From contig JAUWNJ010000010.1 of the NCBI GenBank assembly GCA_030612725.1, forward strand, positions 32,837-96,836: a DNA stretch of 64,000 nucleotides, in the 5' to 3' direction. Below are positions 12,701 through 55,884 of this stretch, piece by piece (within the stretch, counting starts at the first letter, position 1; every line of letters begins with the position of its first letter). The position numbers and the translations under genes were made by a program. A model generated the notes under the pieces. That model was given only the letters and a program-made list of their open reading frames with translations, was not told where the DNA came from and did no database searches. Source of the DNA: Planctomycetales bacterium. GTDB lineage: Bacteria; Planctomycetota; Phycisphaerae; SM23-33.

Positions 12701-12939
12701 CATATCACGACCTGCGAAACAACAAGCATCGCTACTTCGCCACCTTCAAAACGCCAAAGGCCGAGGAAGGTTACGCCGAATTGCTCGCCGGAGCGATGGA
12801 GGCCGTCGGATTGTATGTCGGTGCAATGCGCGAGGGTCGGTTCGACGCCATCCCCGCCGGTAAATGCTCGAAGTGGTGCCCGTACCGTCAGATATGCCAG
12901 TATTCCCAGGCCCGTGCGAATCGAAAGGTAAGTTTTTGA
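9742..12939 (+). CDS. AddB-like helicase-nuclease subunit (PD-(D/E)xK nuclease with C-terminal Fe-S Cys cluster)
   Basis: Walker-A-like TGPASSGKTS at the N-terminus. C-terminal VDYKTG nuclease motif and CSKWCPYRQIC cysteine cluster are typical of AddB/RexB. ATG at 9742 chosen over the upstream ORF start. Confidence 0.65.
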   Translation: MVKEDERIPVSGKGVIVLTGPASSGKTSAVIELYRRCDDAISGPGCLLIVPNAPAVAQAKSLLLERTAGALIAPAVTTFAGLAGNILASSGRSPATLSRVQRMLLLERIIAEIHAAGGFRALGPLVDTPGLAEVLDKSIAELKRAAVEPDMLEKAMGKPSGKDADLLAVYRKYQKHLLDTGLFDVEGQMWQARDVLAGDNDTPLGYEGITSVAVDGFTDFTPTQLEMLALLGKRMKTVLITLPLIDRKHRSRLWFWTSRTLERLHKAMPDARIVNTDNEHEPLRTLFDLTGESEEEPTKREGFSITVLEAPDVEAEVRAVARAVKADLVAGAKSGTIAVVARNMEAYTEPIERIFAAHSIGVRAKSANLDACGPVRYILSLLALRREYEFHDVLTVIKNSYFRPSALGDFDAATVATAEISIRTANVLGGRDSYAKAFARLARRANHAADSDAEDIKKAADMVETLMTCLDELSSTKDITQYVSVVRAIIERLEISVASASYDDDSLVAADLRAMRAFDELLDDVSAAGPLAGEPTDIPARAAAVSACPSARTHADVAVMDVLDARAVRFKHLYLLGVNEKTFPQLTFESCFITESDRTAWGQAGVVLDKRSDLIGREMLLFYLSATRADETLNVSYLAGDAGEGSAARGVFVAELIASARRDRIAVAEKRISPGQFVPPIDQIATPPDAFNAAISAAFNGDDNAHKLMDFSKRNYGDILRRASFGLLAAHRRWAQSPPDEFDGRINSPTLLKNLAEQIPQQWVFSASELNSYAACGWGFFARYLLRLAPLAAPSAQLAPADRGIFCHAVLWRVMTNLAKNSDGVNLAEIDPDELSRTLKQACLAEKNRLADRAIYSQLWDAQTAYWQRLLWNYLSDQREAFGKKPAQSLHFELGFGVTRYRDEDTDSASKPEPIELDAGEYQIRLAGKIDRVDLITCEDAPATLAVDYKTGQLPAARDIIAGRDLQLALYAKALEAMFDIPCAGGAYHDLRNNKHRYFATFKTPKAEEGYAELLAGAMEAVGLYVGAMREGRFDAIPAGKCSKWCPYRQICQYSQARANRKVSF

Positions 12940-15900
12940 GTGAACTACCCGAACTTACCGGTCCTCAGCGTGAAGCCGCTATCGAGCGGGCAGGCGACAG
13001 TATCGCCCTGACCAGCGGGGCGGGATGCGGAAAGACGCTCGTGCTGGCAAGACGATTCACGGAGTTGATTATGGCCGCCGGCGGACTTCGACAAACTCAG
13101 TCGAGCCGCGCGGGCGAAGCCGACAAGAACCCATTCGATAACTTCGTGGCGTTGACGTTCACGGATAAGGCTGCGGCCGAAATGGTCCGGCGTGTCCGCG
13201 ACGTCCTGATGAACATTATGGCCGGTAGCGATAGCGAGGACGACCGCCGGAAGATCGCCGATTGGATTATCGAACTTCCCGCCGCTCGTATCTCCACCAT
13301 TCACAGTTTCTGCGCGTCGCTGCTTCGTCGTTACGCAATCGAAGCCGGCGTCGATCCGGGCTTTAGCGTCTGCGCCGACGAATTGCTGGCGGGGCAGATG
13401 CGAACGCGATCAGTCGAGGACGCCGTTCTCTCGGCTGTCGAGGTCGGCGACGCCAACGTGCTGGAATTGATGAGCCGCACGGAAATGAGCGGGATTCTCG
13501 CGGACGTCGAAACGCTCTTGAAACAGCGCGGCACATGGCGGGACGAAGATTACTCCGACCCGGAAAAAACGCTCGGCCGATGGCGGAAGAGGCAGGAGCA
13601 ATCACGACGGGATAAACTCACCGGCCTCGCCGAGGACGAAAACCTGCGCGATGAGATGAATCGTCTGGCCGGCTATCCGTGCCGCGAACCGGACGACAAA
13701 CTATTCGTATATCGTGAAAGAACGCTCGACGTTATCTCGCAAATCCTCCAGCAGCCTGACACGGTTCAATACGAAGACATTTCATCGCTCCGAAGCCCCG
13801 GCAACATCGGCGGCGCGAAGGCATGGGGCGGGAAAGACCAGCGTAAAGCCTACCGTCAGAAATTAAAAGCCTTTGTGGAGAAATTTGCCGAATTGGCTAC
13901 TTACTTCAGGACGATGGGCGATGCCGACGCGGACGCCGCACAATGTCTGGCGGTGCTGACGAAACTCGCCGGCCTAGCCGACGAACTTTACGCACAGCAG
14001 AAACGCCTGGCTGGGATGCTTGACTTCGACGACCTTATCGACCTGACGGCCCGATTGATACGGGACAATCGCCACGTCCGCCGCTCGATCGGCGGCAATA
14101 TCGACCAGATGCTTATCGACGAATGCCAGGACACCGACGCGACGCAACTGCGGATGCTGTGGGGCCTGCTGAGCGACGACAAGGCATCCGACTCGCTTCC
14201 AAAAAGCAGTAAAATCTGCATCATCGGCGACCTGAAGCAGAGCATCTATCGTTTTCGCGGCGCGCAGGCGGAGGTATTCGAGCAGTTGTGCAGCCGATTC
14301 GGCGGAAACAGGGTGCTGCTGGATAAATCCTTCCGCACGCATCGCGCCGGCGCGGCATTTGTCAACGAGACCTTCAGCCGGTTAATGAGCGGTTACGAAC
14401 CGATTGTCTCGTCGCGGACGGAACTGCCCCCGGTTCCCGGCGTCGAGATACTACTGACCCAATGCGCCGACGATACCAACGCAGAGGCAGCAGCCGACGC
14501 ACAGGCGGAACTGGTCGCGCAGCGAATCGGCGAAATAATCGACGGGCGAGAGAAAATCGTCTTCGATAAACAGGCGAACAAATGGCGTCCCGCCGAGCCA
14601 GGCGACTTCGCCGTCCTCTTCGCCCGAATGACCACCTCGCTGCGATACGAATACGCACTCCAGCGACGCGATTTGCCTTACTATGTCGTCGGAGGCGTCG
14701 GGTTCTTCAGCCGGCAGGAGGTCTATGACGTCCTCAACTCGCTGCGGGTCATCGACAACACGTTCGACGATATCGCCCTGTTCGGATTGCTGCGAAGCGC
14801 AATGCTCGGCCTGGACGATAACGTCCTGCTGCATATCGCTTCGGCTATCGGGCCGCCGTATTTCGACAAACTCACCGACGAGGCTGTGCTTAATGGACTT
14901 ACAGAACCGCAGGTCCGGCAACTCCGCTTCGCACATGAATTACTGGCCCGGTTGCACCGCGAAAAGGACGCGCTCGGACCGGCGGCGATTATCGAAGAGG
15001 TGCTTGAGCAGACGGGATACCAGGCTGTGCTTTTGAGTCAATTCCATGGCCGGCGAAAACTGGGGAATGTCCTTCAATTGCTTGATGCAGCCAGGTCGGC
15101 CCAAGCGACCGGAAAAATCTCGCTGGCGGATTTCATCAGGCGATACGACGAATACATCACGGATCAGTCCCGTCACGAACAGGCTGCCGTCGCCGACGAA
15201 ACCGACGACGTAATACGCATAATGACCGTGCATAAAGCCAAGGGCCTGGAGTTCCCCATTGTCATCATCCCGGACCTCAACGTCGGCTCGCATAAGATAA
15301 GAGACCGAATCCTTTTTCACCCCGACTGGTCGGTTACCTGTAAGCCGCCGGGAATTATGGATGAAGATGAGCAATCGGATAAATCCGGAGATGAAGAACC
15401 GGTCAGTTTCAGCCTGGCGAAGGAGGCTGAAAAGCAATCCGCCTACGAAGAGGACGTTCGCCGATTTTACGTCGCCGCTACACGCCACCAGGACCACCTT
15501 ATTCTAGTCGGGTCCGACCGGCGGAATAAAGACGGGCAATTCAAAGACAAAGGCTCCTGCCTGGCCATGCTTGATGACGTTTTCGGAATCGCCGATGCGA
15601 TAGACGCCGAGGCTGAAGCAATCGAATACGGCAGCGGTTTTTCCATCCGCCTGGCGCGAGTGGAGCCTGTTCGACCGGCTGGCGGGAAGCGAAAAATCTC
15701 GCCGGTCCCGCAACTTATCGCCGCCGCTGCTAATGCCGAAAAAGTCGCCGACGCCCTGGCGTCCACGGGTAAAAACGCCGGCGCGGAAAAATTGAACCTT
15801 ATCGGCCCACTTCCCGACGCCGTCGGGGGTGGAACGGTGGCTGCGACGGCGCTGGCTGACTTCGGTTACTGCCCGATGCTCTACCGATGGCGACACGAAC

Positions 15901-26004: not shown

Positions 26005-26112
26005 CGGCCCGGTGGAACAACAACGATTATCTTCGACTTTCGGATTGGTCGCTCTGCGGTCTTGATTCGTCCGGCAGCGTTATTACAATACGCGATTCGA
26101 CAAAATGAATGG

Positions 26113-28770
26113 ATGACAGACATGAGCGAACTGCACAGAACTGTATTGTACGACCGGCATGTCGCCGGTGGTGGAAAAATCGTCGATTTCGCCGGATGGG
26201 AGATGCCGCTGCAATACGCCGGCGGGATCGTGGCTGAACACCTCGCCACGCGCAAAGGCGCAGGCCTGTTCGACGTCTCGCACATGGGGCGATTCATCTT
26301 CGGCGGCGAAGGCGCGACGCGATTTCTCCAGCACGTCCTGACCAACAACGCCGAGGCCCTGGAGACCGGGCAGGCGCAGTACACGATGATCCCCAACGCC
26401 GACGGCGGGGCAGTCGATGACGCGTACCTGTACCGCTTCGTCGAGGATGAATACCTCCTCGTCGTCAATGCCGCCAACCGACAAAAAGACTGGGACCATT
26501 TCTCCGAACACCTCGCCGAATTCGACGACGTGAAAATGACCGATGAGTCCGAAGAAATCGCAATGATCTCGCTCCAAGGCCCGCTGGCAGGGGCGATACT
26601 CTCCGGCGTTATTGATTCGGGAGCACTTCCAGAACCGACGCGGAACGAACTGGGAGCCGTCGTAATCAACGGCGTCGAGGTCCGTCTCGCCCGAACCGGA
26701 TACACGGGCGAACCGGTCTGCTTCGAACTGTTCGTCGAAAGCCAAGCCGCCGGGAAAATATGGGACCTGCTGATTAATCGCGGCGCAGAACCCGTCGGCC
26801 TCGGGGCGCGCGACACTCTTCGGCTGGAAGCAGCCCTGCCGCTCTACGGACACGAACTGGGACTCGAACCGGACGGAAAAGAAATTGCCGTATTCTCCTG
26901 CCCGTTGGCGCGATTCGCTGTGAGTTTCTCGCCGCTGAAGGGCGATTTTATCGGAAAAGACGCTCTGGCCAAACAGCATGAAGCCTTCATGAAAATCCTC
27001 TCCGAAGATTATTCGTTGATAGCGAACCTGCCGCGACGGATCGTTCCGGTTGCGGTGGTCGGTAAGGGTATCGCCCGTCCGCCGGCAGGGGCGTTCGTCG
27101 GCGACAAGCACGTCGGATTCGTTACCAGTGGAACGGTGGTTCCATACTGGCAGGTCGAGGGCGAAGGTCTGTCGAGCAGAATAACCGACCAAAAGGCGAT
27201 GCGGTCTATCTGCATGGTTATGCTCGACTGCGACCTGCGCGAGGGCGACCGGATTGAAATCGAAATTCGCGGCAAGCAGGTCGAAGCCGTTATCGTCCCG
27301 TTCCACCTCCGCAGCGAGGCTCCGCCTTACGCAAGGGCGATACTGCACGACCACGCATTGGCGATCCACGAAGACCGCACACGTCAGGCCGGCCCGACCA
27401 AGGCGCGCGACCTGCTTGAAAAGGCGATTGAAAACACCATCTGGCGACAGGCAGAGTGCATAAACCTCATCCCGTCCGAGCAGACGTTCTCGCCCATGGC
27501 CAGGATGCTGTCGATCATGGACCCCGCCTTCCGATACGCCGAGCACAAACCGCTCAAGGCCTTCTACGAAGCGAACGTCTTCTACTACCAGGGGACGGAT
27601 TTCATCGAGGCCGTTGAGACCTCGCTGGAAGCCGAATTGCGGAAATTCCTTGGCTGTGCGGAAGTCGAGACCCGCGCCGTCAGCGGGCAGATGGCGAACG
27701 CCGTCGTCTTCAGCGCGATGGTCGATTACATCAACCGGACCGACCGGAAAAGCCCGCCGAGAAGAATCGCAAGGGTGATGAACAATCACATCATCAAGGG
27801 CGGGCACCTCAGTTCCCAGCCGATGGGCGCGATGCGCGACTTCATCGCACACGACCCGAAAACGGAAAAACCGGCAATAACCAACTTCCCCGTCCTGCCC
27901 GAAAACCCGTATAAAATCGACGTGCCCGCCTGCCGGGAACTGCTGGAGCGATACAGACCCGAACTGATTATCTTCGGTAAGAGCGTCGTTCTGCACCCCG
28001 AACCGGTGGCTGAGATTCGGGCGTTCGCCGATGAGATGGGTATCGATACCGTAATCATGTACGACATGGCCCACGTGCTCGGACTCGTCGGCCCGCACTT
28101 CCAGGAACCTTTCGCCGACGGCGCCGACATCGTTACCGGCTCGACGCATAAGACATTCTTCGGTACGCAGCGGGGAATCGTCGCGTCCAACTACGCCGAG
28201 ACCGATGAGCGGTACAATCTCGCCGAGGCGATTCGTCGCAGGACGTTCCCCGGCTCGGTCAGCAATCATCATCTCGGAACGATGGTCGGGCTGCTGATGG
28301 CTACCTACGAGATGAACCATTTTAAGGATGAGTACCAGCCGAAGGTTATCGCCAACGCAAAGGCCTTCGCCGCTGCGCTGAAACGCTGCGGTATGGACGT
28401 AGCCGGTGATGCGGACGTCGGATATACGCAGACGCACCAGGTAGTTGTTAATGTCGGTTACAGCCGGGCCACCGAGATAGCGAGAAAACTTGAGGACAAC
28501 AATATAATCGTCAACTACCAGGCCGCACCAAATGAAGAAGGTTTCACCGCAGCCGGTGCGATTCGCATGGGCGTCTCGGAGATGACCAGGTTCGGAATGG
28601 GCGAGGGCGATTTTGAAACAGTTGCACAACTCATCGCCGATGTGGTAAATAACGACAAGCCGGTAAAGGCTGAAGTGAAATCGTTCAGGGGCGGATTCAC
28701 CGACCTGAAGTTCCGCTTCGGCGGCGAAGAATTTGACGGAATTATGGAAAAACTGCACGGGCTTGTATAG
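26113..28770 (+). CDS. gcvT: Glycine-cleavage T protein (aminomethyltransferase) fused to a C-terminal serine-hydroxymethyltransferase-like domain
   Basis: N-terminus YDRHVAGGGKIVDFAGWEMPLQYAGGIVAEHLATRKGAGLFDVSHMGRF matches GcvT. The C-terminal half carries SHMT-like motifs IPSEQTFSP (ENFTS), YYQGTDFIE (YYGGCE), VSGQMAN (HSGSQAN) and GSTHKTFFG (TTTHKT). An alternative start is at 26122. Confidence 0.7.
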   Translation: MTDMSELHRTVLYDRHVAGGGKIVDFAGWEMPLQYAGGIVAEHLATRKGAGLFDVSHMGRFIFGGEGATRFLQHVLTNNAEALETGQAQYTMIPNADGGAVDDAYLYRFVEDEYLLVVNAANRQKDWDHFSEHLAEFDDVKMTDESEEIAMISLQGPLAGAILSGVIDSGALPEPTRNELGAVVINGVEVRLARTGYTGEPVCFELFVESQAAGKIWDLLINRGAEPVGLGARDTLRLEAALPLYGHELGLEPDGKEIAVFSCPLARFAVSFSPLKGDFIGKDALAKQHEAFMKILSEDYSLIANLPRRIVPVAVVGKGIARPPAGAFVGDKHVGFVTSGTVVPYWQVEGEGLSSRITDQKAMRSICMVMLDCDLREGDRIEIEIRGKQVEAVIVPFHLRSEAPPYARAILHDHALAIHEDRTRQAGPTKARDLLEKAIENTIWRQAECINLIPSEQTFSPMARMLSIMDPAFRYAEHKPLKAFYEANVFYYQGTDFIEAVETSLEAELRKFLGCAEVETRAVSGQMANAVVFSAMVDYINRTDRKSPPRRIARVMNNHIIKGGHLSSQPMGAMRDFIAHDPKTEKPAITNFPVLPENPYKIDVPACRELLERYRPELIIFGKSVVLHPEPVAEIRAFADEMGIDTVIMYDMAHVLGLVGPHFQEPFADGADIVTGSTHKTFFGTQRGIVASNYAETDERYNLAEAIRRRTFPGSVSNHHLGTMVGLLMATYEMNHFKDEYQPKVIANAKAFAAALKRCGMDVAGDADVGYTQTHQVVVNVGYSRATEIARKLEDNNIIVNYQAAPNEEGFTAAGAIRMGVSEMTRFGMGEGDFETVAQLIADVVNNDKPVKAEVKSFRGGFTDLKFRFGGEEFDGIMEKLHGLV

Positions 28771-28774
28771 CAAA

Positions 28775-28925
28775 GATAGCAGAATTACAGGGATTTTTGT
28801 TTTTGCTGAAAAAAGAAGAAGAAAAAGGAGAAAGATAGCGGGATTATGGGGATTACTGGATTATAGGGATTTTCTTTTTTGTTTTTGTCCTCTAATCTCA
28901 AAATCCCTGTAATCCTGCTATTCTG
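28775..28925. repeat. Structured intergenic element: about 20-nt inverted repeat (agcagaattacagggatttt / aaaatccctgtaatcctgct) enclosing purine-rich tandem gggattat-like units
   Basis: Read directly from the sequence between the gcvT-SHMT stop and gcvH. Confidence 0.4.
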
Positions 28926-28970
28926 TTTCGGCGATGGCGACAAAACTTACACTTACAAGGAGAATCTTAC

Positions 28971-29360
28971 ATGGTTCCTGCTGAATTGCGATACGCAAAG
29001 AGTCACGAATGGGCGAAAATGGATGGCGGGACGGTAACAGTTGGTATAACCGCCTTCGCTGCTGAACAACTCGGCGACGTTGTCTTTCTTGAGTTGCCTG
29101 CCGTCGGCGAGAGCGTCGAGGCTGGGACACCCTTCGGCGTGGTCGAGTCGGTCAAGGCTGCGGTCGATTTAAATTCGCCCGTCAGCGGCGAGGTAATCGA
29201 GGTCAATGATGACCTGACCGAAGACATGGAACTGCTGGGCAAAGACTCCTACGGGTCAGCCTGGATGATAAAGGTAAAAACCGCCGGCGACGCCGATTTC
29301 CAAAGCCTCATGTCGGCTGACGAATACGAAAAATTCCTCGAAGCCGAAGAAAAGCATTAA
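28971..29360 (+). CDS. gcvH: Glycine-cleavage H protein (lipoyl carrier)
   Basis: 129 aa with ...ESVKAAVDLNSPVSGEV, the lipoyl-lysine motif. Confidence 0.85.
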   Translation: MVPAELRYAKSHEWAKMDGGTVTVGITAFAAEQLGDVVFLELPAVGESVEAGTPFGVVESVKAAVDLNSPVSGEVIEVNDDLTEDMELLGKDSYGSAWMIKVKTAGDADFQSLMSADEYEKFLEAEEKH

Positions 29361-29427: not shown

Positions 29428-30138
29428 ATGTCTAACAAGATGATGTTCACCGTGATTTTTGCCATGGCGGCAATATGTGCCGGTTGTAATTCTGAAAAAG
29501 CAGTTTGGAACGATGAGTTCACTGACCATAACCCACGTTGGGAATGGAATTACAATAAGGGAACGGCTTACAAACAGCTTACTACGATTGATGGCGTATC
29601 TGTTGTTGAGATTGGAATAACCGACCAATCCTCATCGTCAGGCTATTCTGATTGCTCGCTTCACGAGACAAAATATCAATATCATAATGGTGTATTTGAG
29701 GCGCGTCTCCGCTATGCCGGCGACCACAAATTCGGCACAATAGGATGGGGATTCTGGAACTACCAAGACAAACCAAGAGTTGAGTGTGCCTGGTTCCTTG
29801 GTTGTTCAACCGGAGGTAGTGCATCTGGTTTTCAGGCTATGGTTGTCAGTGATAGGGTTATAAAGTTCCAGAAGCATCTGCCTGAAATTGATATACAAAA
29901 ATGGCATATCTATCGAGTCGAACTTCTACCCACAGGCACCCGTTTCTTTGTTGACGGCGTTGAAGTTGCCGCTACTTCTAAGCGTCCCGGCAAACTACAG
30001 AGATCTGAGATATGGATAGATAACTATCGTCTTCAAGTGATAGACGGTAAGATATCGGCAGCGGGGCACCTGAACATACAGCAAGATCAGCGGATATATG
30101 TTGATTGGGTGCGGTACTATGAAGCCCGTAAAAAATAA
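29428..30138 (+). CDS. Lipoprotein with concanavalin-like/GH16-like fold (low-GC gene)
   Basis: Signal peptide plus lipobox (ICAGC). The gene is visibly AT-richer than its neighbours. Fold assignment is weak. Confidence 0.4.
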   Translation: MSNKMMFTVIFAMAAICAGCNSEKAVWNDEFTDHNPRWEWNYNKGTAYKQLTTIDGVSVVEIGITDQSSSSGYSDCSLHETKYQYHNGVFEARLRYAGDHKFGTIGWGFWNYQDKPRVECAWFLGCSTGGSASGFQAMVVSDRVIKFQKHLPEIDIQKWHIYRVELLPTGTRFFVDGVEVAATSKRPGKLQRSEIWIDNYRLQVIDGKISAAGHLNIQQDQRIYVDWVRYYEARKK

Positions 30139-30216
30139 ATACAGGGTTAAACAGGGACGATTTCCGATTTTCTCATTTGACTGGATTGAACTGGATTAAC
30201 CCCGGTCCCGATTGGG

Positions 30217-30267
30217 CTTTGCGAACTTTTGCCGCATCTGCCGCTCCCAATCAGATTCTGTCGCCTT
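30217..30267. repeat. 51-nt direct repeat, copy 1 (duplicate of the 3' end of the small ORF 32001..32186)
   Basis: cttTgcgaacttttgccgcatctgCcgctcccaatcagattctgtcgcctt matches 32009-32059 with 2 mismatches. Confidence 0.7.
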
Positions 30268-30417
30268 CAGCCGGTACGTCAAATCGTGGGTCGTAAAATT
30301 ATCTTGATTATTTTACGATTGTGTCGATAATAGTCCTGTTGTGAAACTGGGGTTATCTGGAGTTATCCAGCCTACTTGACTTTCTTCATCAAGCACCCAA
30401 CCATCCCATTTTATTCC

Positions 30418-31530
30418 CTAGCCTATCGAGCAGAAGCTAGTGGACCATTCGTTCCAGTGCTGGTTCGTTGGAGCCTGGCACATCTTTTCGATGAGAGCAG
30501 CGGGAAGAAACTCAAGGGGCCAGCAACGCGGTTTTCCACATCCGGCTTGGATAAGTCCGCTTTGGAGCATGTCCCAGACCATTTTCTTGAGTTGCGGGTT
30601 GCTCCAAGCCAGCTTGTACAACAACGAAACGATAAAGCACCCTATAGGACTGACTCCCGAAAGGCCAAAGTAGCTTGCGCTCACTTTGGGCCTGAATATT
30701 TCCCCCATTCCTGGCGGGTCAGGCGGCTTTGGCTTCCCGCCAAAGAACTCTGCCTCTGTGACTTCCCTGCCTCCTGCTCCATCGAGGACACAGTACTTGC
30801 TCTCATGCCTAGGCCTAGCCTCATGAAGCCAGATCGACTTCTCTGATATCCAGGTGCCAAGGTCCGCAACGCAAACCCAGTCCAGCATTTCACGTGGGTG
30901 CCGGACCTCCCCCAGGGCTTTGTCCAATCCTCTAAAAACGTTCTTTGCGGGGGTTGAACTCTCACTCTTCCAATGATGTGAATGGGCCAAGAGACCGTAT
31001 GAGATTCGAGAATGCAATTCGCGGTAGGGACTTCCGTTCATAAGACAATGCTGCTTGATCTCGCTGCATTTCGCTCTTGCCTCAGCGATATGCTTGGCGG
31101 TTAAGGTCAGCTTGCACTCGAACGCGGCCAGCACGCCCCCTGCCAGGTATCGCTTGCCCTCTCTCAGTTTCTCCGGGTAGCACGGATTCAGGATCACAAC
31201 ATCAACCTGAGGGCTTGAGTACCCATCGGGAAAGACGATACGCCCTTTCGTCTCGACGGGATACTCCGAGGGAAGCCACGCAGAAAGCAATTGCTGCCAA
31301 TTCCCTTCACTGTCATCACCCGCTGTCCCAGGATCCTCACGGACCGATGTCTGGATACGCTTATAGTGCGCATCCATCTCGGACGTGGCCTGTCGCATGA
31401 AGTGAGCTATATCGGAATCCGGCCGCCGGATGAACTTTGACACAAAGGCACTGCCTACGGCGATTTGCGGCGGCTCGTCTCGGTGTTCCGGTGGGGTGTC
31501 CATGCTTGGCATCCTTCCAGCATTATACAT
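30418..31530 (-). CDS. PD-(D/E)xK (restriction-endonuclease-like) nuclease-fold protein, uncharacterised
   Basis: PQVDVVILNP...LAAFECKLT gives a D...ExK arrangement on a beta-strand-like context. The MYNAG start at 31530 is preceded by ggagagg. Confidence 0.45.
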   Translation of the reverse strand: MYNAGRMPSMDTPPEHRDEPPQIAVGSAFVSKFIRRPDSDIAHFMRQATSEMDAHYKRIQTSVREDPGTAGDDSEGNWQQLLSAWLPSEYPVETKGRIVFPDGYSSPQVDVVILNPCYPEKLREGKRYLAGGVLAAFECKLTLTAKHIAEARAKCSEIKQHCLMNGSPYRELHSRISYGLLAHSHHWKSESSTPAKNVFRGLDKALGEVRHPREMLDWVCVADLGTWISEKSIWLHEARPRHESKYCVLDGAGGREVTEAEFFGGKPKPPDPPGMGEIFRPKVSASYFGLSGVSPIGCFIVSLLYKLAWSNPQLKKMVWDMLQSGLIQAGCGKPRCWPLEFLPAALIEKMCQAPTNQHWNEWSTSFCSIG

Positions 31531-31654
31531 GACCTCTCCCGTCCCCACAACCCCGACTCGTAACAACCCCACCGTCCCGGTTGTTCGGTTGTTTTCAAAT
31601 TAACCCAAACATTAGTGGGTAAGTTTAGGATTTCTCCTATCGTCTAGAACGTCA

Positions 31655-32348: not shown

Positions 32349-33689
32349 TTGAAAATGCCATTTATCGCCAATACAGATGAGCAGCGTGAGCAGATGCTCA
32401 ACGAGTCGGGCATGAGCGCCGAGGACCTTTTCGCCGATATTCCCGCCGATTTGCGATGCGAGCGGCTGAAAATTGGACGCGGTTTGAGCGAGCAGGAAGT
32501 CCGTCGGCACATGGCGGCGCTGTCGGACAAGAACGCGTCGGGGCTTATCAGTTTTCTCGGCGGGGGGTTCTACGACCACTTCGTACCGGCGGCCGTCGAT
32601 GCAATGGCCTCCCGAAGCGAGTTTTACACCGCGTACACGCCGTATCAGCCTGAAGTCTCGCAGGGAACGCTCCAGGCGATTTATGAATATCAATCCGCGA
32701 TATGCCGGCTTACGGAAATGGAAGTCGCCAACGCCTCGCTCTACGACGGCGGAACGGCTGTCTATGAAGCCGTGATGATGGCGATGCGGATTACCCGGCG
32801 AAATCGCGTTATCGTCGATGAGACCGTCAACCCGGTCTATCGAAAGATGCTGCGGTCGTACACGACCAACCTCGGTATCGAGTTCGTCCAGACGTCCTGG
32901 CACGACGGCCTGGCCGACCGCGAGAAAATCGCGGCAGAATTGAATGACCAGACGGCTGCGGTTGTCGTTCAGAATCCGAACTTCTTTGGCTGTCTCGACG
33001 ATTTCGCCGACCTGGCCGATGCCGCCCACAAGCACGGCGCATTGTTGATTGTATCGTGTTATCCGATTTCGCTGGGCATGGTCCAGACGCCGGGGCAGAT
33101 GGGGGCCGACATAGTCGTCGGCGAGGGTCAGAGCCTGGGTCTGGCGTTGTCCTTCGGCGGTCCTTACCTGGGGTTCATGGCCACTCGCAAAAAATTCGTC
33201 CGCAAGATGCCCGGAAGGGTCGTCGGGCGCACTGTCGATAGCGAAGGGCGGGGCGGATTCGTCCTGACGCTCCAGACCCGCGAGCAGCACATCCGGCGCG
33301 AGAAGGCCATGTCGAACATCTGCACGAACGAGGGCTTGTGCGCCCTGACGGCGACGATTTACCTGAGCCTTCTCGGAAAGGAGGGTTTGCGTGAACTTGC
33401 CCAGACCTGCGCCGACAAGGCCAACTACGCACAGAAGCGCCTGCTGGAAATACCCGGCGTAACGACGCATTTCCCCAACCGCTGGTACTTCAATGAATTC
33501 GTCCTGAGGCTGCCGGTTGCGTCGGCCCAGAGGGTTATCCGCCGATTGCTGGAGCGGGGAATCTCGGCTGGTTTCCCGTTATCGAGATACTACGACGATA
33601 TGGAAAACTCGCTGCTGGTGGCAGTTACCGAAAAACGCACAAAAGAGCAGATCGACCTGCTGGCGCACGCACTGGAGGTGTCGCTGTGA
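32349..33689 (+). CDS. gcvPA: Glycine dehydrogenase (decarboxylating) subunit 1
   Basis: N-terminal P-protein pattern (FIANTDEQREQML...FLGGGFYDHFVPAAVD...YTPYQPEVSQGTLQAI). Confidence 0.85.
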   Translation: MKMPFIANTDEQREQMLNESGMSAEDLFADIPADLRCERLKIGRGLSEQEVRRHMAALSDKNASGLISFLGGGFYDHFVPAAVDAMASRSEFYTAYTPYQPEVSQGTLQAIYEYQSAICRLTEMEVANASLYDGGTAVYEAVMMAMRITRRNRVIVDETVNPVYRKMLRSYTTNLGIEFVQTSWHDGLADREKIAAELNDQTAAVVVQNPNFFGCLDDFADLADAAHKHGALLIVSCYPISLGMVQTPGQMGADIVVGEGQSLGLALSFGGPYLGFMATRKKFVRKMPGRVVGRTVDSEGRGGFVLTLQTREQHIRREKAMSNICTNEGLCALTATIYLSLLGKEGLRELAQTCADKANYAQKRLLEIPGVTTHFPNRWYFNEFVLRLPVASAQRVIRRLLERGISAGFPLSRYYDDMENSLLVAVTEKRTKEQIDLLAHALEVSL

Positions 33690-35134
33690 AACTCATTTTT
33701 GAAAAATCGGTTCCTGGTCGGCGTGCGTATCGGCCCGCCGATAACGACATTGACGCGCCGGCGCGAATCCCGAAGAATTTCCTGCGCGACCGGCCAGCCG
33801 ATCTTCCGGAACTGTCCGAACTGGACGTAGTGCGACACTTTACCGAACTGTCGAACAGGAACTTCGGCGTCGATACGGGCTTCTACCCGCTCGGCTCGTG
33901 CACAATGAAATACAACCCCAAGGTAACCGAGCGCATCAGCCACTATCCGGGGTTCGTGCACTTACATCCGCTGCTGCCGCAACTTCCCGGCGGGGAAATG
34001 CTCGTCCAGGGGGCGCTGGCTGTGTTGCACGACACTGACATGATGTTGCGCGAAATCTGCGGAATGGCCGCCTTTACAATGCAGCCTCTGGCAGGAGCAC
34101 ACGGCGAACTGACCGGTTCGATGATTATCGCGGCCTATCACGCAGACAAGGGCAACGACAAGACGACCATCCTTATCCCCGACAGCTCGCACGGGACCAA
34201 CCCGGCAAGCGCCGCCACCGCAGGATACGACGTGCAAACGGTCCCGTCCGACGATACCGGCGTGATGGACATTGACGCCCTGGCAGAAGTGATGAACGAC
34301 AAGGTCGCAGCCGTCATGCTCACCTGCCCCAATACACTTGGCCTGTTCAATCCGCGAATAAAAGAAATCTGCAAAATGGCCCACGATGTTGACGCACTGG
34401 TGTACTACGACGGAGCGAACCTCAACGCTCTGCTGGGACGATGCCGGCCCGGCGACATCGGATTCGACCTTGTGCACGTGAATTTGCACAAAACCTTCGC
34501 CACACCCCACGGCGGCGGCGGGCCTGGAGCAGGACCGGTCGGAGTCTGCGAAAAACTCATCCCATTCCTGCCAACCTCCGTCATCGCCGACAAACCAGAC
34601 GGGTCGTACTGGCTGGACTACGACAGACCAAAATCCATCGGGTATATCGCGCCGTTCTACGGAAACTTCGCCGTCATACTCAAAGCCTACATATATACCC
34701 TCATGCTGGGGACAGACGGGCTGGAGCGGGTCTCGGAAAACGCCGTGCTTAACGCCAATTACGTCAAAGAAAAACTCAAAGCCCATTTCGACCTGCCATT
34801 CGGACAGACCTGCAAACATGAGTTCGTTCTGTCGGCGTCGCGCCAGGCCAAAAACGGCGTCCGGGCGCTGGACATCGCCAAGGCCTTGATTGACCGGGGT
34901 TTCCACCCGCCGACGGTTTATTTCCCGTTAATCGTCCACGAAGCGATGATGATCGAGCCGACAGAAACCGAAAGCAAAGAGACGCTCGACACCTTCATCG
35001 CCGCGATGATCGAGATCGCCGAACTCGCCCAAAGCAACCCGGAAGAATTAACCGGATGCCCGCGAACGACGCCGGTCGGAAGACTCGACGAAACACTCGC
35101 AGCACGAAAACCAGATTTGGCGTCTTTGGAGTGA
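33686..35134 (+). CDS. gcvPB: Glycine dehydrogenase (decarboxylating) subunit 2
   Basis: GSCTMKYNPKV ... PLAGAHGELTG ... DSSHGTNPASA, the PLP-dependent P-protein C-terminal subunit. Overlaps the gcvPA stop by 4 nt. Confidence 0.85.
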   Translation: MKLIFEKSVPGRRAYRPADNDIDAPARIPKNFLRDRPADLPELSELDVVRHFTELSNRNFGVDTGFYPLGSCTMKYNPKVTERISHYPGFVHLHPLLPQLPGGEMLVQGALAVLHDTDMMLREICGMAAFTMQPLAGAHGELTGSMIIAAYHADKGNDKTTILIPDSSHGTNPASAATAGYDVQTVPSDDTGVMDIDALAEVMNDKVAAVMLTCPNTLGLFNPRIKEICKMAHDVDALVYYDGANLNALLGRCRPGDIGFDLVHVNLHKTFATPHGGGGPGAGPVGVCEKLIPFLPTSVIADKPDGSYWLDYDRPKSIGYIAPFYGNFAVILKAYIYTLMLGTDGLERVSENAVLNANYVKEKLKAHFDLPFGQTCKHEFVLSASRQAKNGVRALDIAKALIDRGFHPPTVYFPLIVHEAMMIEPTETESKETLDTFIAAMIEIAELAQSNPEELTGCPRTTPVGRLDETLAARKPDLASLE

Positions 35135-35157: not shown

Positions 35158-35260
35158 GGTGCCATGCTTTCGCCCGCAGCGCAGCGGAGGGCGTAAGCAT
35201 GTTGTGGCGTAAATCATGCCTACACGCTTCGCTGCGCTGCGCGTGAAGGCATGGCACCCT
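35158..35260. repeat. About 28-nt imperfect inverted repeat (gggtgccatgctttcgcccgcagcgcagcg / cgctgcgctgcgcgtgaaggcatggcaccc) forming a long intergenic hairpin
   Basis: Read directly from the sequence between gcvPB and lpd. Confidence 0.5.
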
Positions 35261-35277
35261 GCACTAGGGATACTGTT

Positions 35278-36648
35278 ATGGGAAATTACGACGTAGTTAT
35301 TCTCGGCGGGGGTCCGGGCGGATACGCCGCCGCTTTGCGAGCGGCCTTGCGCGGCGCGAAGGTCTGCTGCGTCGAAATGGGACACATCGGCGGAACCTGC
35401 CTGAACGTCGGATGCATTCCCACCAAGGCAATGCTCCACGCAAGCGAGATTTTTCATCAGAGCAACCACGCATCCGCTTTCGGACTGAATTGTTCCTGCG
35501 TCGGCGTGGACGGTCGGGAATACATGGCCCGCGTCGCAAAAGTCGTCGCCGGACTGCGAAAGGGCGTCGAAGGACTGCTCAAGGCCCGTAAGGTGGACGT
35601 TCTCCGAGGCAAGGGGCGATTGACCGCTCCGGATACCATATCCGTCGAAACCGACAATGGCTCCGAGCAGGTCAAAGCACGTTCGATTATCATCGCCACG
35701 GGTTCGTCGCCCGCACGCCCCGGCTTCCTGCCATGGGATTCGCCGCGAATAATGACCACCAACGAAGCCACCACCGCCGAGAGCCTTCCCGAAAGCGTTA
35801 TTATCATCGGTGGAGGCGTTATCGGGTGCGAATTCGCAACCGTCTATTCCGAACTGGGCATCGAAACGACCGTTATCGAGATGCTCGACAGACTTGTGGC
35901 AAACCTCGACGCCGAAGCATCAAAGATAATCGCCCGAAGCCTCAAGAAACGCGGCGCGACCGTCCTGACCGGAAGCAAAATCGTCAGCGTCAAAGCAGAC
36001 GATTCGAGCGTTACAGTCGAAACCGAAGATGGAAAAATCATCGAAGCCGACTACGCAATTGCAGCTGTCGGGCGAATACCCAATACCGAAGACATCAGCG
36101 CCGAAGATATTGGTGTGGAAATGGACGGCGGAATCATTCGCGTTGATGACCGCTGCCGGACGAATGTCGAGGGCGTCTATGCCGTCGGCGATGTGGCTGA
36201 GACTCGCCAGTACGCCCATCTTGCGACTCGAATGGGCATCGTCGCAGCCGACAACGCCACGGGAAACGACGCCCGCGACGACCGGACAATCGTACCGGCG
36301 GGCGTCTATACGCACCCGGAAGTCGCCGCCGTCGGAGAGACCGAAGAGAAAGGCGAAAATGTCCGCGTATCGGCATTTCCGCTCCGCGCCAGTGGTATTG
36401 CACACGCCTACGGCGAGATTGACGGACAGGTAAAAATTGTCGCCGACGCCGAAACCGGAAAAATCCTCGGCTCGCTGGTTATCGGTCCGCACGCCACCGA
36501 CGTTATCGCCGAAATCGCACTGGCGATGCGGTATGGGCTGACCGTTGAGAATATCGCCGAGACCATCCACGCTCATCCGACCTTCGCCGAAGCCGTCGCC
36601 GAAGCATCCGAAGCGTGGCTGGGACTACCGTTACACACATTGCGATAA
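35278..36648 (+). CDS. lpdA: Dihydrolipoyl dehydrogenase (L protein)
   Basis: MGNYDVVILGGGPGGYAAALRAA...GGTCLNVGCIPTKAM contains the FAD-binding and redox-disulfide motifs. Confidence 0.85.
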   Translation: MGNYDVVILGGGPGGYAAALRAALRGAKVCCVEMGHIGGTCLNVGCIPTKAMLHASEIFHQSNHASAFGLNCSCVGVDGREYMARVAKVVAGLRKGVEGLLKARKVDVLRGKGRLTAPDTISVETDNGSEQVKARSIIIATGSSPARPGFLPWDSPRIMTTNEATTAESLPESVIIIGGGVIGCEFATVYSELGIETTVIEMLDRLVANLDAEASKIIARSLKKRGATVLTGSKIVSVKADDSSVTVETEDGKIIEADYAIAAVGRIPNTEDISAEDIGVEMDGGIIRVDDRCRTNVEGVYAVGDVAETRQYAHLATRMGIVAADNATGNDARDDRTIVPAGVYTHPEVAAVGETEEKGENVRVSAFPLRASGIAHAYGEIDGQVKIVADAETGKILGSLVIGPHATDVIAEIALAMRYGLTVENIAETIHAHPTFAEAVAEASEAWLGLPLHTLR

Positions 36649-36651
36649 ATA

Positions 36652-38334
36652 ATGTCGAAATTGATTTATTCAGACCTCGGACGCAAATCCTACGAATCGG
36701 CGTTGGTGATTCAACGCCGGTTACTGGAAGAGGTAAAGGCCGACGAGAACTCACCGGCGTATCTCCTGCTCCTCGAGCACGACCCGCCGGTTATAACGCT
36801 TGGTCGGAGCGCCGAGAGCGAGCATCTCCTTGCCTCGCCGGAGCGCCTGGAGCGCGAGGGCGTCGAGGTCCATAAATCCGCTCGCGGCGGGGATGTAACC
36901 TACCACGGTCCGGGACAACTGGTGGGATACCCGATTATGCAAGTTGCAAGTCGGGGAAGGAGCGTCCACGGGTACGTCCGCGACCTGGAAGAAGTCCTCA
37001 TCCGCCTGTTGGGACGCTTCGGCCTGAAGGGCCGACGGCGTAAGGGCCTCACCGGCGTATGGGTCGGCGACGAGAAAATCGCCGCTATAGGCGTAGCCGT
37101 CAGTCGATGGGTCGCCTGGCATGGGTTCGCGCTGAACGTCTCGACGGACCTGTCGCATTTCGATTTCATCGTGCCCTGCGGCATCGACGGGTGCAAAGTA
37201 ACCAGCATGGAGAAACTTCTCGCATCAGAAGTCTCAATTCAGGAAGTGAAACAACAGTTGGTAGAATGTCTGGTCGAGGTGTTCGGATTCGAACCTGTAG
37301 GCTGGAACGGAGCGAAGCGGAGTCCCACCTCAATTTCTACTCCGTCCCAGCCTACAAGTCGCGGACGGTTTCCTGTGTGGTTGCGTCGGCGTATTCCGCC
37401 TGCCGGCAGGAGCGCCGAGGTGCGGCGACTACTGGCCGATTTGAAACTCGAAACGGTCTGCTCCAGTGCGAACTGCCCGAACATGTCGGAATGTTTCGGT
37501 CGCGGCACTGCTACATTTATGATCCTCGGAAACACCTGCACCCGCTCATGCCGATTCTGCGCGGTTCCGACCGGAAAACCCGCAATGCCGCGAGATGACG
37601 AACCGGCCGCAGTGGCAGAGGCATCCGAGCGGCTTGGCCTGAAGCACGTCGTAATTACTTCAGTAACCCGCGACGACTTGCCCGACGGCGGGGCAGGACA
37701 CTTCGCCAAAACCATCCGCGCCGTCCAGGCCCGCCTTTCGCAAACCACAATAGAAGTCCTCACGCCCGACTTCGGTGGCGACGAAGCCGCAATTGACACC
37801 GTCCTTGCCGCCCGGCCTGACGTTTTCAACCACAATATCGAAACCGTTCCGCGTTTGTATTCGCATGTCCGCCCGCAGGCCCGGTACAAACGCAGCCTCG
37901 ACGTGCTCAAATATGCAAGCAGCAGGCTGGCCCGGGGTGGAGCAGGTAGGCTGGGCCAGAGCGGAGCGGAGTCCCACCTTCCTTATGCAAACGAACAAAA
38001 TGCAGAACAAAGGTGGGACTCCGCTTCGCTCCGGCCCAGCCTACGGAAACTCTTTACCAAGAGCGGTCTGATGGTGGGTCTGGGCGAAACTATCGACGAA
38101 ATCCGCGACGTGATGCGGGATTTGCGCAAGGCAGGGTGCAACATTCTGACCATCGGCCAATACCTCGCGCCGTCGCCGGAGCACGTACCGATAGCCCGAT
38201 TCGTCGAACCGTCCGAATTTGACGCCATGCGAACCGAAGCGCTGGCGATGGGCTTTACCGCCGTCGCCGCCGGACCCTTCGTTAGAAGCAGTTACCGCGC
38301 TGAAGAGGTTTTGAAAAAGCAAGCGGCCTTATAA
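36652..38334 (+). CDS. lipB-lipA: Fused octanoyltransferase (LipB) and lipoyl synthase (LipA) single ORF, carrying in-frame palindromic element insertions
   Basis: N-terminus matches LipB (VITLGRS...[19 protein letters not shown]). The C-terminus matches LipA ([29 protein letters not shown] ... [22 protein letters not shown] ... [11 protein letters not shown]). The junction and an internal loop contain copies of a repeat element. Confidence 0.65.
37946..38044. repeat. 99-nt palindromic REP/MITE-like element (35-nt arms gtaggctgggccRgagcgRagcggagtcccacctt) inserted in-frame inside the LipA-coding region
   Basis: Arms at 37946-37980 and 38010-38044 are reverse complements with 2 mismatches. 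The encoded extra peptide is roughly [37 protein letters not shown], located between conserved LipA blocks. Confidence 0.6.
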
Positions 38335-46503: not shown

Positions 46504-46577
<74 letters not shown>

Positions 46578-48807: not shown

Positions 48808-50112
48808 ATGAGCGAAAACACAAAAAATCCCCCCACCTACTTCACCGATGCCGCCGGACGCTTCACCCTCTATCAGGGAAATTGCCTCGAACTGATGCCG
48901 CTACTACCGGCCTGCTCATTCGACCTCATCTTCGCCGACCCGCCGTATTTCCTCTCCAACGGCGGAATCACATGCCATGCCGGGAAGATGGTCTCCGTCA
49001 ACAAGGGCAAATGGGACCGCTCGATGGGCTTCGCCGGAAACTACGCATTCACCAAAGACTGGATCGCCCGATGCCAACGCCTCCTCAAACCCAACGGGAC
49101 AATGTTCGTCTCCGGCACCAGCCACATCATACACATCGTCGGAGCCGTTATGGACGAACTAGGCCTGAAAATCCTAAACGACATCACCTGGGTAAAGCCG
49201 AACCCGCCGCCGAACCTGTCGTGCCGGTATTTCACGCACGCTGCCGAGACGATTCTCTGGGCAGGCCGGGATAAAAAGTGCCGGCACAAGTTCAATTATC
49301 AGTTGATGAAGCGAATCAACGGCGGAAAGCAGATGAAGAGCGTCTGGACGGATATAGAAACGCCGCGACGGGACGAAAAAGTCTTCGGAAAGCACCCGAC
49401 GCAGAAACCGCTCGCCCTTCTGGAGCGGATAATCGCAGCCGCCAGCGACGAAGGCGACCTCATCCTCGACCCCTTCAGCGGCTCAGCCACAACAGGAATC
49501 GCGGCTGCAAGAATGAACAGACAATCCATAGGCCTGGAGATGGAAACGGAATTTCTGGATATCGGCGTGCATCGTTTCGTCGGCGTGCCACAGGCTGACA
49601 ATCCCGACCGCATTCTCGATTTAATAAAAGTACATGCTTTGGGAAATCCGACTCCAACCGAACTTGCACGTTGCTTGGGCATGACTGAACGCCAGGCGCA
49701 TTACTACCGGCAAGCCGCTTCAATACTCGGACTACTTCGACGCTCGGAAAGCGGCTGGGCATTGACCGAAATCGGAAAGACCATTTGCGAAAACAGGCAA
49801 TTGTACGCCCGTTCACTTTTAGCGCAAAGGATACTGGAACTTCCGCTCGTCCAGTCAGCCATCAGGAAAAGCCGGAGGTATCGCACCAAAAACACAAAAT
49901 GCCGAATCATTGCAGAGTTATTATCCCGCAGCACCGCACTGACCGGTTCGACTTGCACACGGCGAGCACAAACGCTCTTGGCATGGATAGATTGGTCGCT
50001 GGCGCACTGTTGCGCCGAACCTGTCCTGCCGGTATTTCACGCACACTGCCGAGACGATTCTCTGGGGCGGCAAAACGAAAAGTTGGTAAAATGCCAACGG
50101 TTCGCTATATAA
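48808..50112 (+). CDS. Beta-class N6-adenine DNA methyltransferase of the CcrM/M.HinfI family (probable GANTC specificity) with an extended C-terminal region
   Basis: FADPPY (motif IV) precedes LDPFSGSATTG (motif I), the beta-class order. Block-by-block similarity to CcrM (ILNDITWVKPNPPPN, FNYQLMK, HPTQKPLALLERII). The C-terminal ~170 aa are atypical. Confidence 0.8.
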   Translation: MSENTKNPPTYFTDAAGRFTLYQGNCLELMPLLPACSFDLIFADPPYFLSNGGITCHAGKMVSVNKGKWDRSMGFAGNYAFTKDWIARCQRLLKPNGTMFVSGTSHIIHIVGAVMDELGLKILNDITWVKPNPPPNLSCRYFTHAAETILWAGRDKKCRHKFNYQLMKRINGGKQMKSVWTDIETPRRDEKVFGKHPTQKPLALLERIIAAASDEGDLILDPFSGSATTGIAAARMNRQSIGLEMETEFLDIGVHRFVGVPQADNPDRILDLIKVHALGNPTPTELARCLGMTERQAHYYRQAASILGLLRRSESGWALTEIGKTICENRQLYARSLLAQRILELPLVQSAIRKSRRYRTKNTKCRIIAELLSRSTALTGSTCTRRAQTLLAWIDWSLAHCCAEPVLPVFHAHCRDDSLGRQNEKLVKCQRFAI

Positions 50113-50121
50113 TCGCACACC

Positions 50122-50859: not shown

Positions 50860-50964
50860 TGAGTTTAAGGCGGGTAGCGTGGTCGCGTTTTTGGGGCCAC
50901 ATTTACGTCAGCGCGGCCACGGTTTGTTCCACCAGAAGGCACACAGCAAGGTTGCAACAATGCG

Positions 50965-55810: not shown

Positions 55811-55884
<74 letters not shown>

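Follow-up and report, generated by a model that had tools for sequence, protein, structure and literature searches.

Introduction

The glycine cleavage system (GCS) and serine hydroxymethyltransferase (SHMT) lie at the core of glycine/serine one-carbon (C1) metabolism and photorespiration, as well as of the reductive glycine pathway that is being engineered for formate and CO2 assimilation. In plant mitochondria, glycine decarboxylase and SHMT jointly carry out the photorespiratory conversion of 2 Gly to Ser + CO2 + NH3 on a shared pool of 5,10-methylene-tetrahydrofolate (methylene-THF) and tetrahydrofolate (THF), and the question whether methylene-THF is channelled between the two enzymes has been debated. 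The plant enzymes are separate proteins, whereas the subject of this study is a gene that appears to join the same two reactions covalently, and that has counterparts in which they would be translationally coupled. It lies in a 64,000-nucleotide stretch of a Planctomycetales bacterium genome (contig JAUWNJ010000010.1, positions 32,837 to 96,836 of the forward strand; below referred to as the window) and encodes an aminomethyltransferase, the T protein or GcvT of the GCS, fused to an SHMT-like domain.

Canonical GcvT, with solved structures from E. coli (1VLO, 3A8I), T. maritima (1WOO) and B. subtilis (1YX2), has the fold, the catalytic Asp pair and the folate-site residues in common with the fusion, which moreover takes the place of gcvT in an operon of the gcvT-H-PA-PB type. 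It differs in that its T half is about 45 residues longer, ends in a SEAPPYARP tail and is followed at the C-terminus by a pyridoxal 5'-phosphate (PLP) enzyme of 470 aa. Homologues of the T half are also found in dimethylglycine oxidase (1PJ5), sarcosine oxidase (2GAG) and dimethylglycine dehydrogenase (4PAB), where a GcvT-type folate domain is fused to a C1-exchange partner. There, however, the partner is a flavin oxidase and the reaction is independent of H protein, while the window protein has a PLP enzyme as partner and a T half that looks H-dependent. The SHMT of M. jannaschii (4BHD, 4UQV), an enzyme that prefers tetrahydromethanopterin, is the best match to the C-terminal half in both sequence and fold and has S226, Q235 and an FPGxVSNHH motif in common with it. 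With about 36% identity, a clade of its own, Gln347, extra insertions and constant pairing with a T protein, the window domain is nevertheless distinct.

In Thermacetogenium phaeum, a gcvT-gcvH-gcvPA-gcvPB ... sdaAA/sdaAB cluster is present and a branch from glycine via serine to pyruvate has been discussed (PMC12674515); gcvT and the two glyA genes of this organism are separate and unlinked, and a fusion is not described. No GcvT-SHMT fusion was found in the searchable full-text literature, a body that leaves subscription-only papers outside, and neither PMC1971073 nor PMC12674515 mentions one. Both enzyme families are textbook knowledge and the architecture is implicit in public databases; what is new is a widespread, selectively maintained T-protein/SHMT module that occurs fused, split or reversed, together with a dedicated, mis-annotated clade of SHMT-like proteins.

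Architecture of the fusion protein

The gene forms a single uninterrupted frame on the + strand that opens with a TTG at 26062 and closes with a TAG stop at 28768-28770. It holds two in-frame ATG codons, one at 26113 that would give an 885-aa product and one at 26122. The latter is the more likely start, because the database protein P0001, 100% identical to the window fusion, has 882 aa and the homologous fusions begin with MSxLxRT. As the preliminary description of this DNA had proposed, a GcvT and an SHMT-like domain reside in one protein: Pfam places GCV_T, GCV_T_C and SHMT within the same open reading frame (ORF), the last of these (PF00464) covering profile positions 9-399 of 399 with an E value of 6e-36 and 124 bits against a cutoff of 27. 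The features of the gene are the following.

26122..28770, + strand: gcvT-SHMT-like fusion gene, 882-885 aa (alternative start ATG 26113)
26146..26862, + strand: GCV_T folate-binding domain, aa 12-250 (Pfam PF01571, E 2.9e-78)
27202..27300, + strand: GCV_T_C barrel domain, aa 364-396 (Pfam PF08669, 28.1 bits, cutoff 25.9)
27313..27336, + strand: SEAPPYAR (aa 401-408), conserved tail of the T half in its long form; where the two proteins are split, the T protein ends here
27337..27408, + strand: variable inter-domain linker of about 24 aa, aa 409-432 (predicted local distance difference test, pLDDT, below 50; dN/dS about 0.5)
27418..28635, + strand: SHMT-fold PLP domain of the archaeal-like clade, aa 436-841, with a C-terminal extension to aa 885
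28150..28152, + strand: Lys680, predicted PLP Schiff-base lysine in the STHKT motif, equivalent to Lys229 of E. coli SHMT
28519..28521, + strand: Gln803, in place of Asn347 of E. coli SHMT; invariant in 67 aligned fusions

The N-terminal half passes the GcvT equivalog cutoffs of both models, TIGR00528 (266.5, cutoff 235.85) and NF001567 (310.5, cutoff 300), and matches the solved T proteins from B. subtilis, T. maritima and E. coli with E values of 1e-60 to 1e-50. Its AlphaFold2 model has a pLDDT of about 85-95, and Foldseek aligns it to 1YX2 and 1WOO with a template modelling (TM) score of 0.87. Residues D102/D103, Y107, N119, Y197, E205 and R233 align to D95/D96, Y100, N112, Y188, E195 and R227 of the T. 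maritima protein, positions that we take, from the published T. maritima, human and E. coli structures, to be the catalytic Asp and residues of the folate site; the catalytic Asp is D96 in T. maritima and D97 in E. coli. Among 42 relatives, D102/D103, Y107, N119, Y197, E205 and R233 are invariant. The half thus looks like a GcvT, with a predicted H-protein-dependent transfer of the aminomethyl group to THF. Note that the designation as a typical T protein given earlier holds for the GcvT scores and the fold, but not for size and C-terminus: with its roughly 410 aa, where the canonical protein has about 365, this is a long form with small insertions in the C-terminal barrel region, and its tail reads ...SEAPPYARP instead of ...LPFY. 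Variants of this tail are common to standalone long-form T proteins.

The SHMT-like domain

For the C-terminal half, 67 fusions were aligned with E. coli GlyA and M. jannaschii SHMT, and residues are numbered as in the E. coli enzyme. The alignment of the GlyA reference agreed with the matches to solved structures, and the roles assigned to SHMT residues, as well as the numbering, are assumed on the basis of published structures. Invariant in all 67 fusions are S35, Y55, E57, Y65, S97, G98, H126, S175, D200, H203, H228, K229 and R363. In the window protein the putative PLP ligands are K680, D651, H565, H654, S624 and S524/G525 (K229, D200, H126, H203, S175 and S97/G98), and the residues for carboxylate binding and acid-base catalysis are S455, Y475, E477, Y492 and R818 (S35, Y55, E57, Y65 and R363). 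The divergent SHMT blocks to which the preliminary description had drawn attention are indeed present as SEQTFS (aa 455-460), YYQGTD (aa 491-496) and GSTHKT (aa 676-681), and its conserved PLP lysine is Lys680 in the last of them, unchanged throughout the aligned fusions.

The best solved relative of this half is the archaeal SHMT from M. jannaschii, with an E value of 2.6e-50 in a single-sequence search. Against a family profile this enzyme scores 259 bits over its full length, compared with at most 129 bits for bacterial and eukaryotic SHMTs. When the half was modelled alone with a more diverse alignment, the model reached a pLDDT of 84.9 and a predicted TM score (pTM) of 0.86; its top 50 fold matches all have the SHMT fold, and the M. 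jannaschii enzyme again ranks first with a TM score of 0.85. The AlphaFold model of the full-length monomer is weak in the SHMT half (pLDDT about 60, pTM 0.51, root-mean-square deviation of about 20 Å to SHMTs), too weak for any inference on an interface or a tunnel. Domain, profile and fold searches all point to SHMT and not to another family of PLP fold type I.

The exchanges T226S, R235Q and GG262/263SN are common to the fusions and the archaeal enzyme and give the half an archaeal signature of Ser226, Gln235 and FPGxVSNHH, the latter replacing VFPGxQGGP. In the folate pocket, Y64, L121 (as I), L127, F257 and P258 are kept or conservatively changed. The discrepancy is residue 347, a pterin contact in E. 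coli SHMT, which is Asn in archaeal and canonical SHMTs; each of the 67 aligned fusions, like the split copies described below, has Gln here. That this Gln reflects co-adaptation to the T partner is speculation. In a crude neighbour-joining distance tree, fused and split copies group together in a single clade marked by Q347, with canonical SHMT as well as M. jannaschii SHMT and the proteins P0219 and P0249, the last three all N347, outside it; the SHMT half does not fall inside the clade of standalone archaeal SHMTs in this tree. Judged by sequence and modelled fold, the C-terminal half is a member of the SHMT family in a separate, archaeal-like clade, for which a THF-dependent serine/glycine activity is predicted.

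Occurrence of the fusion

A search was run over 5.8 billion proteins and its best 120 matches were inspected. All of them contain the same three domains, measure about 883 aa and are 65-84% identical to the window fusion. They derive from metagenome-assembled genomes of Phycisphaerae/Planctomycetes, Desulfobacterales, Elusimicrobia and Anaerolineaceae, and their database name is only 'glycine cleavage system aminomethyltransferase GcvT'. A genome scan with one genome per species found the fusion in at least 184 genomes; 80 loci were retained, 79 of them with an intact fusion ORF. Two Planctomycetales loci, L001 (92% identity) and L004 (88%), have the same synteny as the window. Other carriers include members of Desulfobacterales, Syntrophobacter, Acidobacteriota, Spirochaetales, Lysobacterales, Thermoleophilia/Gaiellales, Chloroflexia, Nitrospiria and Oscillospiraceae, and among the cultured ones are Acetobacterium malicum DSM 4132 and Eubacteriaceae ES2, the latter with a complete genome (CP130740.1). 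An exhaustive search of 50%-identity representatives recovered full-length fusions down to 37% identity, including one from a Woesearchaeota archaeon. The pair of domains, fused or in neighbouring genes, occurs in many bacterial and some archaeal lineages. The characterization of the fusion as a non-standard architecture is correct for model organisms; in environmental genomes it is common.

In a comparison with L004, the ratio of nonsynonymous to synonymous substitution rates (dN/dS) amounts to 0.16 in the T half and to 0.14 in the SHMT half, as opposed to about 0.5 in the 27-codon linker. Purifying selection of similar strength therefore maintains both halves. One divergent representative, the 889-aa fusion P0124 (46% identity), aligns a His with the Schiff-base Lys, a Thr with E57 and a Leu with H126; its SHMT-like half may be an inactivated copy, or the alignment may be in error.

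Split pairs and a reversed fusion

The SHMT-like protein also exists as a standalone gene. In eight of eight such cases examined, a T-protein coding region lies immediately upstream, and in four of the eight gcvH-gcvPA-gcvPB follow. One copy, from Chloroflexota, precedes a phosphoglycerate dehydrogenase-like gene, and another, present on 11 contigs and derived from a Nanoarchaeia archaeon, lacks further gcv genes at a distance of up to 6 kb. Where the two genes meet in L081 and L084, a genuine stop codon is followed by a Shine-Dalgarno-like motif and an ATG, and in the distance tree the split forms are nested among the fused ones. In L085 (4064-6530) and L086 (2-2601), on the other hand, the T-protein coding sequence lies upstream of the SHMT-like gene in shifted frames. 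These two are probably fusions broken by indel errors in long-read assemblies, so that database counts of 'standalone' copies will be inflated.

In two of the four split operons with gcv genes, a low-specificity L-threonine aldolase of the GntG/LtaE family, scoring above cutoff, stands between gcvPB and lpd (L081 10732-11799, L089 9917-10957). This arrangement suggests that threonine-derived glycine may feed the T/SHMT module there. In DPANN archaea, the pair of long T protein and SHMT-like protein occurs split or fused without gcvH or gcvP within 6 kb, as seen in L082 (4551-7455) and L083 (3763-6667) from Nanoarchaeia and in P0145/P0277 from Woesearchaeota. The Nanoarchaeia T protein has 482 aa and scores below the GcvT cutoff (262, cutoff 300), and the pair may work without a full GCS in these organisms.

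A second type of protein combines the two activities in the opposite order. It has about 1220 aa, with a canonical SHMT at the N-terminus, a middle region, and GCV_T/GCV_T_C at the C-terminus; representatives are P0192, P0214, P0241, P0407 and P0419, and the loci L090 (7001-10747) and L091 (6435-10130). It is widespread in Aerophobetes, Anaerolineae, Poribacteria, Actinobacteria and Methanomassiliicoccales, where it is likewise named only GcvT. As exemplified by P0192, P0407 and P0419, such proteins resemble the window fusion in having the same two predicted activities in one chain and in being encoded in a gcv operon. They differ from it in domain order, in a canonical-type SHMT (T226, R235, GG, N347) and in the additional middle region. 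Pfam detects two stretches of GCV_T, and the middle region may be a second, degenerate copy of this domain. By its sequence features the reversed protein is the product of an independent fusion event that involved a different SHMT subfamily. That fusion took place twice independently, with the order of the domains reversed and with SHMTs from different subfamilies, is strong evidence for an advantage in joining the two activities.

Proposed function

We consider it likely that the fusion is a bifunctional T-protein/SHMT that interconverts glycine and serine via locally recycled methylene-THF and that acts as the T component of the adjoining GCS, which is described below. In the proposed sequence of events, the P protein (gcvPA/gcvPB) would decarboxylate glycine and load the aminomethyl group onto the lipoyl-H protein, from which the T domain would move the carbon to THF, releasing NH3 and forming 5,10-methylene-THF. 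The SHMT domain would then combine methylene-THF with a second glycine to yield serine, THF would be regenerated next to the T site, and the lpd product would reoxidise the H protein. The net, reversible reaction would be 2 Gly + NAD+ + H2O = Ser + CO2 + NH3 + NADH. Tethering of the two domains would confine the labile folate intermediate, along with a small folate pool, to their vicinity and would fix the stoichiometry of the domains at 1:1. SHMTs are obligate dimers, so that a (T-SHMT)2 particle is to be expected.

We infer from the sequences the kinetic coupling of the two sites, the presence of both activities and the direction of flux. In the acetogen operons, and only there, the gene content suggests the direction from glycine via serine to pyruvate. 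In organisms with a Wood-Ljungdahl pathway, flux could just as well run in reverse, yielding two C1 units from serine, or in the reductive glycine direction.

Several observations weigh against this assignment or narrow it. The variable and predicted disordered linker would be compatible with coupling by proximity rather than with a rigid or sealed tunnel, and together with the existence of split versions as separate proteins it implies that channelling may be weak or absent. Gln in place of Asn347 in every aligned fusion means that normal folate use is not guaranteed, and the score of 250.6 bits with the NCBI SHMT model NF000586 falls short of the cutoff of 335. In a large Desulfobacterales clade and in Lysobacterales, no gcvH or gcvP was found within 10 kb of the fusion. 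A serine dehydratase is adjacent in only 3 of the 80 loci, all of them from acetogens, and was consequently rejected as a general partner. Of the channelled module suggested in the preliminary description, the coupling of T protein and SHMT gains comparative support from the pairing in eight of eight standalone copies, the reversed fusion and the acetogen operon, while a rigid tunnel is disfavoured by the disordered linker.

A natural single-chain T-protein/SHMT with split and reversed counterparts provides a test case for the channelling of methylene-THF, and the fusion is a candidate building block of synthetic C1 pathways. Annotation has a gap as well, as thousands of fusions are named only 'GcvT' and their standalone partners 'hypothetical protein', the latter because they too score below the NF000586 cutoff (249 and 256 bits). 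SHMT activity may therefore be overlooked when metabolism is reconstructed from many of the Desulfobacterales, Planctomycetota, Chloroflexota, acetogen and DPANN genomes, and if the fusion is the only SHMT of a genome, serine/glycine interconversion would be scored as absent.

Alternative explanations

A lesser but real possibility is that both halves are active and independent of each other, with the fusion serving only co-expression and 1:1 stoichiometry and without any folate handover; the role of the protein could then equally be serine breakdown, with both sites producing methylene-THF. This would be in line with a linker that is variable, modelled with low confidence and fast-evolving (dN/dS about 0.5), with the nesting of natural split versions among fused ones and with the many loci that carry the fusion away from other gcv genes. 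It does not readily account for a pairing that persists in eight of eight standalone copies, for a fusion that arose twice in opposite orders with different SHMT subfamilies, or for an invariant pterin-pocket change peculiar to the paired SHMT clade, which together suggest a co-adaptation beyond shared expression.

Taken further, such co-adaptation could have produced a 'glycine-to-serine synthase', in which a remodelled SHMT-like site takes C1 directly from the T domain and not from the free folate pool. A bound folate would swing between the sites, or a methylene/iminium species would be handed over, and the folate would be catalytic and non-exchanging. We consider this unlikely; if true, it could explain the isolated gene pair in genome-reduced DPANN archaea.

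Still less probable is a folate-independent aldolase or transaldolase of SHMT fold, which might for example cleave threonine or another beta-hydroxy amino acid to supply glycine for the GCS. The C-terminal half does remain below the curated SHMT cutoff, and the fluorothreonine transaldolase model TIGR04506 is a secondary NCBIfam match, if only with a score of 149 against a cutoff of 650. Among solved structures, the transaldolase ObiH (7k34) ranks second, but it aligns with profile positions 174-452 only, the C-terminal two thirds, and its partial 144 bits compare with the full-length 259 bits of M. jannaschii SHMT; we accordingly judge a transaldolase identity unlikely. The N-terminal segment that it leaves uncovered has Y55, E57, Y64 and Y65 conserved and aligns with true SHMTs. 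Asn347 is needed for THF-dependent activity in the SHMT of B. stearothermophilus, and its replacement is a point in favor of this explanation; Gln, however, retains the amide group, and the other folate-site residues are kept (Y64, L121 as I, L127, F257, P258). Finally, the split operons L081 and L089 already contain a separate threonine aldolase.

With no PLP-binding or catalytic residue lost from the window protein or from any of the 67 aligned fusions, and with the SHMT half under strong purifying selection, a dead regulatory or scaffolding domain, such as a glycine/serine sensor that controls the T protein, is very improbable, even though the divergent P0124 apparently lacks the Schiff-base lysine, E57 and H126. 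An assembly or sequencing artefact that joined adjacent genes, a reading for which the adjacent split versions might be cited, is refuted for all practical purposes by the architecture common to the 120 best matches, by an ORF of about 883 aa that recurs in more than 120 protein clusters, intact in 79 of 80 genome loci, in many phyla and in a complete isolate genome, and by the purifying selection on both halves (dN/dS); frameshifted fusions on error-prone contigs show that such errors happen, but in the opposite direction.

Gene context in other genomes

Gene context was analyzed for the 80 loci with flanks of up to 10 kb. In about 25 of them the fusion adjoins gcvH-gcvPA-gcvPB, and lipB/lplA and lipA genes often come next. 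In Eubacteriaceae ES2, A. malicum and another Acetobacterium, it is part of an operon gcvH-fusion-gcvPA-gcvPB-sdaB-sdaA that would encode a complete route from glycine via serine to pyruvate.

A second GcvT-family gene near the fusion was seen in a single locus of the 80, L012 from Acidobacteriota. It lies just upstream of the fusion (7986-9173), encodes 395 aa and is 28% identical to the T half; an IclR-type regulator is located just downstream of the fusion (12863-13675). In Lysobacterales, a class I/II aminotransferase and a transketolase-family gene flank the fusion (L029 7635-9962, L040 7115-8623). The same pair flanks the reversed fusion in Aerophobetes (L091 5217-6404 and 10162-12195), where the order on the contig is aminotransferase-reversed fusion-transketolase-gcvH-gcvPA-gcvPB. 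Between the two contexts the aminotransferases are 36% identical, the transketolase-family genes only 25%. It is pure speculation that these neighbours form a route from serine via hydroxypyruvate to a transketolase donor.

Gene neighbourhood in the window

In the window, the cluster reads fusion-gcvH-[insertion]-gcvPA-gcvPB-lpd-lipB/lipA. From the encoded sequences it comprises every component of a GCS plus the lipoylation enzymes, with the fusion as its only T protein.

28771..28970, + strand: spacer between fusion and gcvH, 200 nt, with a long imperfect hairpin and three GGATTACAGGGATTTT-like copies
28971..29360, + strand: gcvH, lipoyl carrier H protein, lipoyl-lysine motif ESVK with Lys62
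29428..31572, mixed strands: GH16-like gene (+) and DUF6602 gene (-), unrelated to gcv, interrupting the cluster between gcvH and gcvPA
32349..33689, + strand: gcvPA, P-protein subunit 1, likely start ATG 32355
33686..35134, + strand: gcvPB, P-protein subunit 2
35251..36648, + strand: lpd, dihydrolipoyl dehydrogenase or L protein (TIGR01350, 505 bits, cutoff 409)
36652..38334, + strand: LipB octanoyltransferase-LipA lipoyl synthase fusion for lipoylation of the H protein, one 560-aa ORF

With a GC content of 0.50-0.51, as opposed to 0.56-0.59 in its surroundings, the stretch with the GH16-like and DUF6602 genes is probably an insertion; in L004 this site is occupied by other genes. The LipB-LipA ORF scores 163 bits with TIGR00214 (cutoff 84) and 362 with TIGR00510 (cutoff 310), and remains below the NCBI model for the known LplA-LipA fusion (357, cutoff 800). 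In related loci, lipB and lipA are two adjacent genes; the window ORF is the second fusion of this cluster.

A canonical glyA was sought by tblastn with E. coli GlyA, which in the window and in all 80 loci hit only the C-terminal half of the fusion. As evidenced by Pfam annotation, folD, fhs, metF and glyA are not among the remaining large ORFs of the 64-kb window.

Within the 200-nt spacer downstream of the fusion, the GGATTACAGGGATTTT-like motif occurs three times as compared with 0.45 occurrences expected by chance, and it is found nowhere else in the window at one mismatch or less. The hairpin, which is built from these three copies, has a minimum free energy of -54.3 kcal/mol (z -3.7) and is without a match in Rfam; a role in transcript processing or stability, by which it would set the ratio of T to H expression, is conceivable. 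Neither a glycine riboswitch nor another known RNA was detected upstream, as Rfam at gathering thresholds returned only two tRNA genes in the window, at 46504-46577 (+) and 55811-55884 (-).

The other large ORFs of the window are ordinary chromosomal genes, among them AddAB, a Ser/Thr kinase, TrpD, a restriction-modification system and MetK. The region 48808-52032, with a GC content of 0.51, encodes an N6/N4 DNA methylase with DUF7226, an unannotated ORF of 245 aa and an HNH-domain protein, and is probably a restriction-modification or other mobile module.

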